Source: a virus | Taxonomy: Duplodnaviria > Heunggongvirae > Uroviricota > Caudoviricetes | IMG/VR virus record: IMGVR_UViG_2778261506_000004 | DNA length: 6,168 nucleotides | Reading direction: 5' to 3' (one strand) | In this document: piece after piece, positions 1-6,168 of the stretch | How the letters are laid out: the number at the start of each line of letters is the position of its first letter | Numbering within the stretch: the stretch's first letter is position 1 | Made by a program: the position numbers and the translations under genes | The notes under the pieces: model-generated | What the model saw: the letters and a program-made list of their open reading frames with translations, nothing else | What the model was told of the DNA's origin: nothing | Databases searched by the model: none

Positions 1-102
<102 letters not shown>

Positions 103-309
103 AAACCGGAAATAACGCCAGAAATGGTGGAAAAAATAGCCTAAATAGGCTGATTCGATGTGTTTGCGGGAAAAAAATCGGCCCAGATCCGCGAAATTTT
201 AATCAACGAGTCAGCTTGGGAAGAAATGACCTGCTTATTCGCACCTTCCTTAGCTCTTTAACAATCTGGTCCCCATCAACAAGTAACTGATAACTTGAGG
301 AGGTGTGAA

Positions 310-516
310 ATGCACAAAACAGAACCCAAAATCGTCGCGCCCGGATACACAAATGAGGAAATTTACGAGTGGATGGCAAAGAAGCTGGCAGCTATAAACC
401 AGCTTCGTGAAGTGCTGTCTTATCGACAGGAAACAATAGACTCCTTAAAAAAACTGGATCAGGAAATCACGGTTTTATCACAGGATGTTACTTTAGATAT
501 TGTGCAGACAAATTAG
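310..516 (+). CDS. Small hypothetical phage protein, 68 aa, predicted helical/coiled-coil (MHKTEPKIVAPGYTNEEIYEWMAKKLAAINQLREV...)
   Basis: ATG at 310 is preceded by a strong Shine-Dalgarno GAGGAGG (297-303) at 6-nt spacing. The ORF track start at 295 is a TTG with no RBS. Stop TAG at 514-516. No family recognised. Confidence 0.55.
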   Translation: MHKTEPKIVAPGYTNEEIYEWMAKKLAAINQLREVLSYRQETIDSLKKLDQEITVLSQDVTLDIVQTN

Positions 517-922
517 GATCCCATTCATTTTCGTCAAAATCATCAAAGTGATGAATTTGTGATCTCCAGTCTCGATAATCTAAAAATTTCTGGGCGGTTA
601 CGCTTATTTTATCAAGTGTGAGTTCATCCTGAATTGAAAGAAGAAGTTCATCAAATTTCATCTCATTAATCTGTTTTGGCATCCAGTGATGCTTCATCAG
701 AATAAGGTGAACCAGAGCCTTTTTCCCATTCAACTGATTATAGGGAGTGCCGAATTTCTTCCGGTGCTCATGTAAGACAAGATCCAGAAGAGTAAGTAAT
801 GTTGCCCTTGATTCCACTTTGCTTATTTCGACTGATGACACTACCCCACTGATTTCAATGCCCCGATACTTTCCAACATTTTCACAGTGGGATTTGTACA
901 ACGTGTAGATATTACCGGACAT
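488..922 (-). CDS. Hypothetical protein, 144 aa, encoded antisense to the surrounding + strand operon; candidate lysogeny-expressed moron or exclusion gene
   Basis: ATG (complement of 920-922) is preceded on the minus strand by AAGGA at about 7-nt spacing; stop is the complement of 488-490. Its 3' end overlaps the 310..516 gene convergently by 29 bp. Near the C-terminus the string RDWRSQIHH gives an R-x6-H spacing that is loosely HEPN-like; this is weak and unverified. Confidence 0.55.
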   Translation of the reverse strand: MSGNIYTLYKSHCENVGKYRGIEISGVVSSVEISKVESRATLLTLLDLVLHEHRKKFGTPYNQLNGKKALVHLILMKHHWMPKQINEMKFDELLLSIQDELTLDKISVTAQKFLDYRDWRSQIHHFDDFDENEWDPNLSAQYLK

Positions 923-937
923 TTCTTTTCCTTTTGC

Positions 938-989
938 GTTGTTGGGGATAACCAGATTAACCGAATCCTTGTTGTTGGGGAATAACCAG
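938..989. repeat. Tandem imperfect direct repeat: GTTGTTGGGGATAACCAG (938-955) and GTTGTTGGGGAATAACCAG (971-989), about 33 bp centre to centre
   Basis: Read directly from the sequence; the two copies differ by one inserted A. They lie 16 to 70 bp upstream of the minus-strand gene start, i.e. in its promoter or leader region. On the minus strand each copy contains TTATCCCCA / TTATTCCCC, a partial resemblance to a DnaA-box TTATNCACA. Confidence 0.6.
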
Positions 990-1206
990 GTCCACCTCGC
1001 CTGATGTGGCTAAAAGCAGGCACATAACAGCTAAGTATTTTCAACCAGAGAGAATCCTTAGCGTTGTGGTGAATGCTGCTCAGCGCACGCGGGTTAAGGT
1101 TGAGGCTGACAGTCGACCTTCTGTGGATACCCACCCGCCTGGTGTGCAACCTTCGCCAGGCACCGGGAGGCACCCGGCACCACAACTTTATGCTGTGTGT
1201 AGTCTT

Positions 1207-1253
1207 GGCGGTACCAGCTTGTACCCTTGCTTCCGGCTGGTACCGTCCTTTTT
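1207..1253 (+). terminator. Candidate intrinsic terminator or attenuator hairpin: 10-bp perfect stem CGGTACCAGC (1209-1218) / GCTGGTACCG (1236-1245), 17-nt loop, followed by a T5 run (1249-1253)
   Basis: Perfect inverted repeat followed by TCCTTTTT on the + strand only; the minus strand has no T-run after the hairpin. It sits about 140 nt upstream of the 1391 start codon inside a GC-rich region with no ORF. The loop is longer than in a typical terminator. Confidence 0.4.
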
Positions 1254-1390
1254 ACAAAACAGAGAAGAGCATCACCGGACGACGGGCTCATAACTCAATC
1301 CATCCGGGCGGCTGCCACCGCAGGTGTTCTTCTCTGTTTTGTGGAGAAACTAATCGGCCTTGCAGGGTCGATATGATGAGGAGCAGCAAA

Positions 1391-3609: not shown

Positions 3610-4717
3610 AAATAATGTTTCAGTCCCGAACTTGTATCCGCTTTATAGTAGAAAAGTAAATAAAGTCTATTGGCGATATAAACATCCTGTGACCGGGAAG
3701 TTTCATTCTTTAGGCACAAACGAAGCTGAAGCCATTGCTATTGCCACTGAGGCAAATTCACGCCTGGCTGAGCAAAGAACCCGGCAGATTATGGCTATCA
3801 GTGACAGGATCGCAACCAGCAAAGGAAAAGCAATCACAACGTCAACCTGGTTAGATCGCTATCAAGCAATCCAGGATGACAGACTGGAAAGTGGCGATAT
3901 AAAGCTAAACACCTATAAACAGAAAGCCAAACCAGTATCCTTGCTCAGGGAACGAGCAGGAATGAAATTAATTTCATCAGTTGATGTAAGGGATATAGCA
4001 CAATTACTTGACGAGTATATCACTGCCGGGCAACCGAGGATGGCGCAAGTAGTCCGCTCCGTTCTAATTGATGTATTCAAGGAGGCACAACACTATGGGG
4101 AAGTCCCTCCGGGCTATAATCCAGCACTGGCAACCAAACAACCCAGAAGAAAAATTACCCGACAACGGTTAAGTCTTGAAGAATGGCAAAAAATCTTTGA
4201 TATCGCAGATGCACGCCATCGTTATATGGGGAATGCCATGCTGTTAGCACTGGTTACCGGCCAACGGTTAGGTGATATCTCACGTATGAAATTTAGCGAT
4301 ATTTGGGATGATCATCTTCACGTCATCCAAGAAAAAACCGGGAGCAAAATCGCCATCCCGCTTTCCCTTCGCCTCAATGCAATTAACTGGAGTTTACGCG
4401 ATGTAGTAGCCCGCTGCCGTGACTATGCAGTCAGCCCATACCTTGTACATTTTTTTCGTACTACTTCACAGGCTGAACGTGGCGCGCAAGTAAAAGCCAA
4501 TACATTGACGATGAATTTCAGTAAAGCGAGGGATTTAGCAGGCATTGACTGGGGTGAAGGTTCGCCCGCCACATTCCATGAACAAAGATCTTTATCTGAG
4601 CGACTTTACGAAGCTCAGGGCGTCGACACCCAAAAACTTCTGGGACATAAATCGCCTAACCAGACAGCTAAATACCATGATGATCGTGGTAAGGAATGGG
4701 CAAAAATCAAGGTTTGA
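3590..4717 (+). CDS. int: Site-specific tyrosine recombinase, phage lambda Int family integrase, 375 aa
   Basis: N-terminal arm-binding region resembles lambda Int (...VPNLY...VTGKFHSLG...). The C-terminal catalytic domain has the lambda-like motifs VTGQRLGD (Arg), PATFHEQRSLSERLY (His-x-x-Arg), LLGHKS (His) and AKYHDDRGKEW (Tyr nucleophile). AAGGA RBS lies 9 nt upstream. Confidence 0.95.
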   Translation: MAARPRKNNVSVPNLYPLYSRKVNKVYWRYKHPVTGKFHSLGTNEAEAIAIATEANSRLAEQRTRQIMAISDRIATSKGKAITTSTWLDRYQAIQDDRLESGDIKLNTYKQKAKPVSLLRERAGMKLISSVDVRDIAQLLDEYITAGQPRMAQVVRSVLIDVFKEAQHYGEVPPGYNPALATKQPRRKITRQRLSLEEWQKIFDIADARHRYMGNAMLLALVTGQRLGDISRMKFSDIWDDHLHVIQEKTGSKIAIPLSLRLNAINWSLRDVVARCRDYAVSPYLVHFFRTTSQAERGAQVKANTLTMNFSKARDLAGIDWGEGSPATFHEQRSLSERLYEAQGVDTQKLLGHKSPNQTAKYHDDRGKEWAKIKV

Positions 4718-4832: not shown

Positions 4833-5729
4833 ATGCAGTTGTATGCCTTACGTGTGTTAATGAGACCGCGCGATCCAGACCTCTTTTCGAAAGGAGCTGT
4901 TCAGAAAGATATCTCTCATTTTGAAAATGCTATGGTTGTCGCTGCAAAAAATTTACACATGACGTCATCAACACCTTCCGTTCATAAGAAAACTAGTTAC
5001 ACCCTGAAATTGAGCATAAAACCTACTGATGGTGTTATGGCTGGAGTCATATCAAAGCTGCAAAAGATTAAAGGACATGATAAAGACTTTCGAGAGTACG
5101 ATGTAGACAACTATCCACCTATCGTATGGATTTGGGACAAAGTAGAGCAGGTGTTACTGGTTGAGAGGAAAACCGCTGTTTTCAAGGATGCGCAACAAGT
5201 TGCTAAAGCATTCGAAGATCTAGCCAATAACGACTATTTGGCTCAGTTAGGACTTAGAATATTTATAGAGCCTTGTCTTGAAATGGAAGATTTTTGGTCA
5301 GAATACCATAGGCTTCAATTTATCGACAAAGTCAGCTTTACGCTGATTACTCCGAATATCTTCGGAAGCAGTAAGCAAGCGTTAACCAATGATTTACGGA
5401 AGCTTGAAAAAGATACCAATGCAAATACTGTGACCACTATTTTTGAAAACAAAGATGGCAATTTGAAACTCAAAGGTTCTCATTGGGCTGAGACTCTTGT
5501 TGACTGGGTCAAAGATGGTGGCGGGTCATGGTTGATTAAAGGACGTAAGACACTCAAGTCAAAATCTACTACGGTATCCAGTAATCAGACAGCCAAAATC
5601 GTGCTGATCGAAGGTGAGATATCAGAAATTGAACTTGATGGCTACTCAGCAAATGATATTAAAGAGATCATAGCATTACATCAAAACAGGTATACGTTCA
5701 AAAATGCAAAATCTAACTGTCTGGATTAA
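4833..5729 (+). CDS. Hypothetical soluble protein, 298 aa, no recognisable family; first gene of a two-gene operon
   Basis: ATG at 4833 is preceded by AGGAG (4821-4825) at 7-nt spacing. Long ORF in a visibly AT-richer region than the upstream phage genes. No Walker A, HD, HEPN or other motif was recognised by eye. Confidence 0.8.
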   Translation: MQLYALRVLMRPRDPDLFSKGAVQKDISHFENAMVVAAKNLHMTSSTPSVHKKTSYTLKLSIKPTDGVMAGVISKLQKIKGHDKDFREYDVDNYPPIVWIWDKVEQVLLVERKTAVFKDAQQVAKAFEDLANNDYLAQLGLRIFIEPCLEMEDFWSEYHRLQFIDKVSFTLITPNIFGSSKQALTNDLRKLEKDTNANTVTTIFENKDGNLKLKGSHWAETLVDWVKDGGGSWLIKGRKTLKSKSTTVSSNQTAKIVLIEGEISEIELDGYSANDIKEIIALHQNRYTFKNAKSNCLD

Positions 5730-6168
5730 AGCTATAGCTACCTTCTTTTTGTGCTTAGCATTAGCATCGACTGATAAAACCATTTATACCTTACTTGAGC
5801 AGGCTTCTGCTGGAGTAATAGGTTCAATACTTGGAGGTATTGCCGCAGGTATCTCCGTTATCTTCGGAATTTTGGCTGTCATTAATAAGGGCGAGAAAAG
5901 CACAGACTTTACGGACTATTTAGATAGTTTAGAATTAGATTTGAAATTACTGGTCATGTGTCTGGCAGTAACAATCTTCCTTCCCTATTTACGTAATTAT
6001 GACATACCACTAGTAAATTATCCTCAGCACGAATTTATCCCTTCTAAAGGCAAGCTATTTACTGCTTTAGAACTTTTTGCTATCGTGCTATCTCTTAACC
6101 TCATTGCAGAAGTGATTAGCTGCATGATTTTAGTGGTTAAAAAAAGTTTCAAAATTGAATCAAAGTGA
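5704..6168 (+). CDS. Small integral membrane protein, 154 aa, about four predicted transmembrane helices including a Gly-zipper-like helix (GSILGGIAAGISVIFG)
   Basis: ATG 5704 overlaps the upstream gene by 26 nt in another frame, suggesting translational coupling; its own RBS is weak. Hydrophobic stretches at roughly aa 7-22, 36-60, 80-96 and 118-145. Stop TGA at 6166-6168 is the last codon of the window. Confidence 0.7.
   Translation: MQNLTVWIKAIATFFLCLALASTDKTIYTLLEQASAGVIGSILGGIAAGISVIFGILAVINKGEKSTDFTDYLDSLELDLKLLVMCLAVTIFLPYLRNYDIPLVNYPQHEFIPSKGKLFTALELFAIVLSLNLIAEVISCMILVVKKSFKIESK

Follow-up and report, generated by a model that had tools for sequence, protein, structure and literature searches.

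The window analysed here is the whole 6,168-nucleotide (nt) stretch of IMG/VR virus record IMGVR_UViG_2778261506_000004, and our subject is two convergent genes near its left end (Table 1). One of them encodes a 144-residue protein of the ECs1072 family on the minus strand; the other, termed the partner gene, encodes a 68-residue protein on the plus strand, and the two coding regions overlap at their 3' ends. The open reading frame (ORF) listing, family scans and comparison to annotated genomes identify the window as the left arm of an e14/SfIV-like lambdoid prophage of Escherichia coli/Shigella. An initial annotation of the DNA letters had described both ORFs, a ribosome-binding site (RBS) for the minus-strand gene and a 29-nt convergent overlap, all of which we confirm; the partner gene has an RBS as well. 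The ECs1072 protein family is already catalogued, and one of its members was earlier flagged as a lysogeny-expressed candidate moron; the main new result is the pairing of ECs1072 with a conserved partner. In the literature that we searched, we found no description of this convergent partner, of the rule for its orientation or of the variety of insertion contexts given below. We estimate a probability of roughly 60% that the two genes form a self-contained, mobile, lysogeny-expressed moron cassette of temperate enterobacterial phages.

Table 1. Features of the two-gene locus and its surroundings, in window positions
Feature	Position	Strand	Details
IS5 right end	1-249		InsH C-terminus; terminal inverted repeat CTTATTCGCACCTTCC at 234-249; outside the cassette
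TTAG, IS5 target site	250-253		Stem of a minus-strand intrinsic terminator in intact relatives
AATCTGGTCCCCATCAACAAG, inverted third copy of the leader unit	263-283	+	75% similar; upstream of the partner RBS; significance uncertain
Partner RBS	297-303		GAGGAGG
Partner gene	310-516	+	68 residues; ATG 310, TAG 514-516
A7 run in the partner gene	447-453		Frameshift site in variants
Coding overlap	488-516	both	29 nt; convergent
ECs1072-family gene	488-922	-	144 residues; ATG 922-920, TAA 490-488
Palindrome	506-516		TGGGATCC(C)A
Weak terminator-like hairpin	591-606	+	Inside the ECs1072 coding region
RBS AAGGAAAAG and tandemly duplicated leader unit	923-991	-	Each copy ends in Shine-Dalgarno (SD)-like AAGGA
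Leader repeats	938-958, 971-991		GTTGTTGGGGA(A)TAACCAG
Conserved dyad element GCCTGCTTTTAGCCACATCAGGCGAGGTGG	992-1021	-	Candidate promoter or operator
STnc100/PasD-like small RNA (sRNA) region	1033-1256	+	41.9 bits, below the gathering score of 47; E = 1e-6
Terminator hairpin of the sRNA region	1209-1245
Inverted repeat, 25 nt	1254-1278 / 1318-1342		84% complementary; spacer 39 nt
yfdP, yfdQ (DUF2303), yfdR (HD phosphatase), xis, int	int end 4717	+
Two genes of unassigned family 3' of int	4833-6168	+	298 residues; 154 residues

Two soluble proteins encoded tail to tail

The 144-residue protein scores 157.8 bits against the NCBIfam model NF033230 (ECs1072 family phage-associated protein), a hypothetical equivalog profile of ~142 residues with a curated cut-off of 70 bits; residues 4-144 align to profile positions 2-142. 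It also matches phrog_5286, a group of unassigned function, over its entire length (E = 1.5e-90, 1-144 of 144), and has no match in Pfam or PADLOC. Homologues from ST64B, Sakai, Pantoea, Pectobacterium and IMG/VR likewise score above the NF033230 cut-off. An exhaustive HMMER search yielded 76 family representatives (50%-identity clusters), most of them full-length, single-domain proteins of ~143-175 residues and the remainder shorter fragments. Named members are confined to Enterobacterales, and the family is carried by temperate phages and prophages of both lambdoid and P2-like types. Three scans of viral sequences returned no further relatives, and a scan of genome contigs returned 3 loci.

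The AlphaFold2 model of the protein is confident and all-α, with a predicted local distance difference test (pLDDT) score of 82 and a predicted TM-score (pTM) of 0.82. The near-invariant residues of the family are R54, L64, G66, A69, H72 and W134. The protein is mildly acidic, with a grand average of hydropathicity (GRAVY) of -0.47, and a hydropathy scan found no transmembrane or hydrophobic segment; the maximum Kyte–Doolittle (KD19) value is at most 1.42 for both gene products, which are both predicted to be soluble. A Foldseek search of the model against PDB and BFVD gave nothing above a TM-score of 0.31, with BFVD returning no entries, and the family profile matched no PDB sequence at E <= 10. 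A Pfam scan of all 58 family members produced only scattered single-member noise, and a search of PADLOC-DB 2.0 with the window proteins and with four diverse homologues gave no match at E <= 0.1-1. As modelled, the protein is a soluble, all-α molecule without a detectable fold relative. Our searches for literature on ECs1072, STMMW_20121 and sb50 turned up no functional study.

The initial annotation had taken an R-x6-H spacing near the C-terminus (RDWRSQIHH) as a weak hint of a HEPN RNase. This segment is variable: R117, R120, H124 and H125 differ among homologues at 52-72% identity, are lost already at 52-56% identity and do not appear in the family consensus. The HEPN reading is refuted because the residues of the proposed motif are not conserved. 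In addition, Foldseek alignments to HEPN toxins reach TM-scores of 0.23-0.29 with probabilities of at most 0.14, which is noise, and the four-helix up-and-down HEPN fold or another RNase was rejected.

The partner product belongs to phrog_1744 and carries the N-terminal motif EPxI..PGYTxEEIxEWM. In the AlphaFold2 model (pLDDT 87), residues 1-14, which hold this motif, are extended and are followed by one long helix spanning residues 15-67. Variants of the partner fall into phrog_1744, phrog_3501 and phrog_8304, all functionally unassigned, and cross-match to phrog_1744. The A7 run within the gene is the site of a frameshift in variants on many database contigs; the frameshifted E. albertii form overlaps the ECs1072 gene by 64 nt. 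Within the overlap, the near-invariant C-terminal EWDP of ECs1072 is encoded by a palindrome (Table 1), and in several relatives (among L017, L019, L020, L024 and L025; L numbers denote the loci compared) the partner reads W-D-P from that palindrome on the opposite strand.

Both reading frames are under purifying selection, as judged from allele comparisons. The 144-residue gene and an allele at 98.8% identity are separated by 6 synonymous and 0 non-synonymous differences, and the ratio of non-synonymous to synonymous polymorphism (pN/pS) relative to E. albertii is 0.31. For codons 1-47 of the partner, pN/pS is 0.05-0.18; the C-terminal third of this protein is weakly constrained, and the E. 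coli partner family is very narrow.

Conservation of the convergent pairing

We compared 19 distinct loci of the ECs1072 family and found a partner homologue convergent at the ECs1072 3' end in 16 of them. The two genes overlap by 29-317 nt in 15 of these 16 loci; in L013 the partner ends 35 nt downstream of the ECs1072 gene. Partner homologues accompany ECs1072 across a range of 22-100% protein identity. The partner of P2-like Pantoea prophages is related to that of E. coli at BLASTP E = 3e-6 (phmmer E = 1.5e-5), and the partners in Sakai Sp4 and L013 were found through the motif G-[YL]-[TS]-[DN]-x-E-[LI]-x-[ED]-W-[LM]. A hidden Markov model (HMM) built from 4 partner sequences was run on the six-frame ORFs of independently fetched loci and returned exactly one match per locus, in 5/5 loci (3887 ORFs) and in 12/12 loci (1442 ORFs). 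In each new locus, the match is the convergent ORF that overlaps the ECs1072 3' end. Of 5426 complete E. coli genomes, 424 contain the partner gene (searched with its non-overlapping part) and 421 the ECs1072 region, adjacent to one another and in matching identity bands.

These counts bear on the possibility that the two genes are neighbours with no functional relation, the small ORF being simply the first early gene and the overlap a by-product of genome compactness. The narrow E. coli partner family with its loosely constrained C-terminal third would suit such a reading, as would the variable length of the overlap and the gap in L013. However, partner homologues follow ECs1072 through six backbone contexts and occur nowhere else among the ~5300 six-frame ORFs of the fetched loci, and we regard a chance association of this kind as very improbable. 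The convergent arrangement is not accidental on these comparisons, and conserved co-occurrence together with convergent overlap strongly supports the proposal, made in the initial annotation, that the two genes are a pair.

Insertion contexts, leader region and the IS5 junction

The pair, or cassette, is found in at least six backbone contexts. It lies after PL and beside a cI-like repressor in the window and in L001, L012, L013, L022 and L026-L034; on the PR side, as the first genes opposite cI, in L018; between a cII-like gene and O in Sakai Sp4, the source of the name ECs1072; within the Pe early operon in P2-like Pantoea prophages; between Q/PR'-tR' and the holin gene in ST64B, Klebsiella phage KPP5665-2, Serratia and IMG/VR contigs; and beside a terminase-like gene in L035. 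In every context, the lytic genes on the flanks run in the direction of the partner and against that of the ECs1072 gene; the partner often lies directly 3' of a lytic promoter or its leader terminator. Because the partner is co-oriented with the operon and usually stands just after a major lytic promoter, its transcription is expected to be coupled to the activity of that promoter. The ECs1072 homologues of ST64B (L024, 3281-3715) and Klebsiella phage KPP5665-2 (L025, ~3850-4291) are unannotated in the corresponding records, in which only the partner is called (sb50 and GP45, respectively), and we flag both records for this gap.

The plus strand of the window holds every gene up to the end of int except the 144-residue gene. 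In this prophage type, the ECs1072 gene is flanked by cI/cro on one side and by yfdPQR-xis-int on the other. The initial annotation had read such an antisense gene within a phage operon as accessory, and this is borne out by the slot between PL and yfdP, which holds different cargo in sibling phages: a 242-residue antisense gene in PhiR29_1, orf33 in SfV and ymfJ/ymfI in e14. Homology breaks off at window positions 938 and 992. By these comparisons the cassette behaves as a moron in a cargo hotspot. Its function is likely to be accessory and to lie outside the core phage cycle, given that siblings do without the cassette and that it works in unrelated circuits. The e14 genes of E. coli K-12 (ymfJ/ymfI; L036, 5498-6085) occupy the same slot, between the cI-like repressor with PL and xis-int, and are also convergent, with a 63-nt overlap. 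Homology of YmfI and YmfJ to the cassette proteins was considered and rejected, since none is detectable; YmfI belongs to NCBIfam NF051477. These comparisons mark the slot after PL in e14-family prophages as a hotspot for convergent two-gene cargo.

The intact arrangement is preserved in L001 and SfIV. There, the cI-like repressor gene ymfK and its terminator are followed by a strong PL (TTGACA-16-CATAAT) with GTAC operators on its flanks, and the 68-residue gene is the first gene after this promoter. An intrinsic terminator with an 8-bp stem, in minus-strand orientation, lies between PL and the partner and ends the ECs1072 mRNA at a point upstream of where the partner gene starts. In this arrangement the ECs1072 mRNA is expected to be antisense to the entire partner gene. 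The convergence and overlap of the two genes, combined with the position of this terminator, imply that the two mRNAs are extensively antisense and that the polymerases transcribing them would collide. A weak plus-strand hairpin resembling a terminator is positioned ~75 nt past the partner stop codon (Table 1); it could limit read-through from PL.

The window departs from this arrangement at its left end, a feature that the initial annotation had overlooked. The match to intact prophages begins at 249/250, where the right end of an IS5 element stops. The element sits 60 nt upstream of the 68-residue gene, between PL and that gene, and parts the cassette from PL and cI; this junction is found in 0/5426 complete E. 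coli genomes. Because IS5 has removed PL from the partner and broken the ECs1072 terminator, regulation of the cassette in the window is probably disturbed. The cassette is therefore probably misregulated here, and the prophage itself may be defective.

The repeats upstream of the 144-residue gene are genuine, as is the inverted copy upstream of the partner RBS (Table 1). The two direct copies form a 33-nt tandem duplication of the SD-proximal unit, which relatives possess in only one copy. Next to them lies a conserved dyad element that follows the pattern GCCTG-N7-12-CCACCTCAGGCG-N2-4-GTGG and occurs 65-101 nt upstream of ECs1072 starts at seven loci from six genera; the Pantoea copy contains two compensatory double changes. 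We considered a structured leader RNA or pseudoknot 5' of ECs1072 and rejected it for want of thermodynamic backing, as the leader folds with no more stability than shuffled sequence (z = +1.14). A plausible TATAAT or extended -10 is present in leaders of the Sakai and Pectobacterium types, and in the latter the dyad element is bracketed by a -35-like TTCACC on one side and an extended -10 (TGgTATCTT) on the other. Because of these flanking -35 and -10 sequences and the absence of any folding gain, we take the dyad to be more probably part of a promoter or an operator than a structured RNA.

Beyond the leader, the region that resembles STnc100/PasD includes a terminator hairpin and is labelled 'ymfH' or a frameshifted hypothetical coding sequence in genome annotations. 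This sRNA-like region was rejected as a component of the cassette, as it is absent beside other family members. A 25-nt inverted repeat is present between its terminator and the yfdP start. At the other end of the window, the two genes after int are low in GC content, and the 154-residue product is hydrophobic and membrane-like. Searches of Pfam, PHROGs, PADLOC and NCBIfam returned nothing for either the 298-residue or the 154-residue protein. SfIV carries gtrA/gtrB/gtrIV in the slot held here by these two genes, which are candidate lysogenic-conversion cargo because of this shared position.

Expression in homologues and a possible role in the prophage state

The ST64B homologue (L024; 144 residues, 167.5 bits to NF033230) is 29% identical to the window protein, and by its size, neighbours and overlap it is STMMW_20121. 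This 435-nt gene (2090066-2090500) adjoins the holin gene and overlaps STMMW_20131 (sb50) by 71 nt. It resembles the window gene in family, length, antisense placement in a lytic operon and possession of a convergent, overlapping partner, and differs in its site, between Q/PR' and the holin gene rather than after PL. Differential RNA sequencing (dRNA-seq) indicates that STMMW_20121 is transcribed from its own promoter, antisense to the lytic genes, in almost all of 17 conditions, and the gene was named as a candidate for an accessory or regulatory role (Owen et al. 2020, PMC7067206). Its level is 60-270 transcripts per million (TPM) in 16/17 conditions; median levels are 113 TPM for STMMW_20121, 93 TPM for the partner and 3.7 TPM for each of the two flanking genes (Table S5, PMC7067206). 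The pairing of STMMW_20121 with sb50 was not reported in that study (Owen et al. 2020, PMC7067206). The initial annotation had expected expression in the lysogen, and in ST64B this is what is seen. Expression from a repressed prophage is thus observed in homologues, and we infer it for the window gene.

The balance between the two ST64B transcripts varies with condition. The ratio of ECs1072 to partner stands at 2.5 in the InSPI2 baseline and drops to 0.76 under peroxide and 0.41 under nitric oxide (NO) shock, both of which induce prophages (Table S5). Across conditions, the partner correlates with the holin gene (rho 0.59, p 0.012), and ECs1072 shows no such correlation. The RNA-seq libraries behind these values are presumably strand-specific. 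Elsewhere in the family, the Sakai ECs1072 probe shows a 2.13-fold change at the transition to stationary phase, significant over growth. The gene in the partner position of e14, ymfJ, undergoes late SOS induction upon repressor cleavage (log fold change 4.8), as expected if it is driven by PL.

The same expression values could be given a different meaning, in which the act of transcription matters most: constitutive antisense transcription of ECs1072 would stop leakage from PL, PR and PR' into xis/int or the lysis genes, and the proteins would tune the choice between lysis and lysogeny. An insulator of this type would account for the placement of the cassette, always opposed to, and just after, a major lytic promoter or leader terminator, and for flanking genes at ~3.7 TPM beside a cassette at ~100 TPM in ST64B. 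It would not need two proteins under purifying selection, however, and a circuit-specific regulator is hard to reconcile with a cassette that works in lambdoid early, lambdoid late and P2-like circuits and that sibling phages manage without. We consider this explanation improbable.

The preferred reading, a lysogeny-expressed moron cassette, can be set out as follows. The ECs1072 gene would be transcribed against the lytic operon from its own promoter and be on in the lysogen, as shown for the ST64B homologue. The partner would be transcribed from the lytic promoter next to it: PL in the intact prophage, PR or PR'-tR' elsewhere. Firing of the lytic promoter, or prophage induction, would tip the balance from ECs1072 to the partner by convergent transcription and RNA pairing. 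At the protein level, the single-helix partner may bind or modulate ECs1072, acting as a modulator or antidote.

Several observations weigh against this reading. Both genes are expressed in the ST64B lysogen, so that a plain division into a lysogenic and a lytic gene is too simple, the partner being on in lysogens as well. ECs1072 and partner levels over the 17 conditions give a Spearman coefficient of +0.37, which is not significant; this lack of anticorrelation argues that antisense antagonism is not dominant at steady state in ST64B. Upstream of the 144-residue gene, the window contains no detectable consensus sigma-70 promoter, a second point that the initial annotation had overlooked. Frameshifted partner variants are common at the A7 run. 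Finally, 3/19 loci (Pectobacterium, Lonsdalea and L007) have no recognisable partner homologue, and an iterated partner HMM did not find one in any of them; Pectobacterium and Lonsdalea have instead an unrelated, conserved convergent ORF that overlaps by 176-185 nt, and L007 has no convergent partner.

Comparison with characterized prophage systems suggests where the cassette may belong. The sieB gene of lambda and P22 and the bor gene of lambda are lysogen-expressed morons with their own transcription unit in or beside the PL or late operon, and confer exclusion or serum resistance. SieB is a membrane protein and Bor a lipoprotein, and neither is known to have a conserved convergent protein-coding partner. 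ECs1072 shares the plan of a lysogen-expressed moron with these genes, but it has no hydrophobic segment and no similarity to SieB or Bor in sequence or fold. Assignment to the exclusion proteins of the SieA/SieB/Imm type was rejected in view of its lack of a transmembrane helix and its GRAVY value. The TxpA/RatA and BsrG/SR4 loci of B. subtilis prophages are convergent type I toxin–antitoxin systems in which RNAs pair at their 3' ends to produce post-transcriptional cross-control; a short hydrophobic peptide serves as toxin and a non-coding RNA as antitoxin. They are like the cassette in being convergent prophage units, whereas the cassette encodes two soluble, conserved proteins. The BstA/aba locus of prophage BTP1 is reportedly a prophage-expressed accessory locus by the immunity region that combines defence with self-escape of its carrier, BstA being described as a KilA-N protein and aba as a DNA element. 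Both BstA/aba and the cassette are accessory loci of prophages; no homology links them, and a defence role for ECs1072 is putative.

The two genes could also form an addiction or abortive-infection pair resembling a toxin–antitoxin system, in which one protein inhibits growth and the other restrains it, both being made in the lysogen. Their ratio would be fixed by the overlap, and the toxin would be freed upon infection, upon induction or when the prophage is lost. The small size and solubility of the two proteins (145-155 and 55-120 residues), their tight co-occurrence and their movement among unrelated phage backbones are all compatible with such a pair, as are the presence of both transcripts at ~100 TPM in ST64B lysogens in a ratio that varies with condition, and the form of the partner, a single long helix of a kind that often docks onto another protein. 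However, neither protein resembles any known family of toxins or antitoxins. Frameshifts in the partner are frequent and are not accompanied by an obvious loss of ECs1072, and the window tolerates an IS5 insertion that severs the partner from PL. The formal classes were rejected as well: the genes co-occur as in type II systems but are convergent, an atypical layout, rather than arranged in a co-directional operon, and they overlap at their 3' ends as in type I systems but have conserved protein-coding ORFs, with neither product a hydrophobic toxin. On balance, we think that an addiction pair is unlikely.

Within the preferred reading of a moron cassette, the assignment of a role is tentative. 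The likeliest one is that ECs1072 supplies a function of the prophage state, for example exclusion, abortive infection or an activity like that of a toxin, with the partner as its modulator or antidote, although we regard even this as a possibility with the odds against it. A more speculative and still less probable proposal is that the cassette represents a new class of module, in which novel-fold soluble proteins are encoded tail to tail against a lytic promoter. Firing of that promoter, through induction or infection by a related phage, would flip their ratio by collision of transcription and pairing of the mRNAs, and thereby trigger or release exclusion or abortive infection. If true, this would be a protein–protein toxin/antidote system switched by convergent transcription and not by proteolysis.

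The cassette is present in ~8% of complete E. coli genomes and also in prophages of Salmonella, Shigella, Klebsiella, Serratia, Pantoea and Pectobacterium. As an orientation-locked pair with one member among the few prophage genes strongly transcribed in lysogens, it provides a testable candidate for lysogenic conversion or defence.

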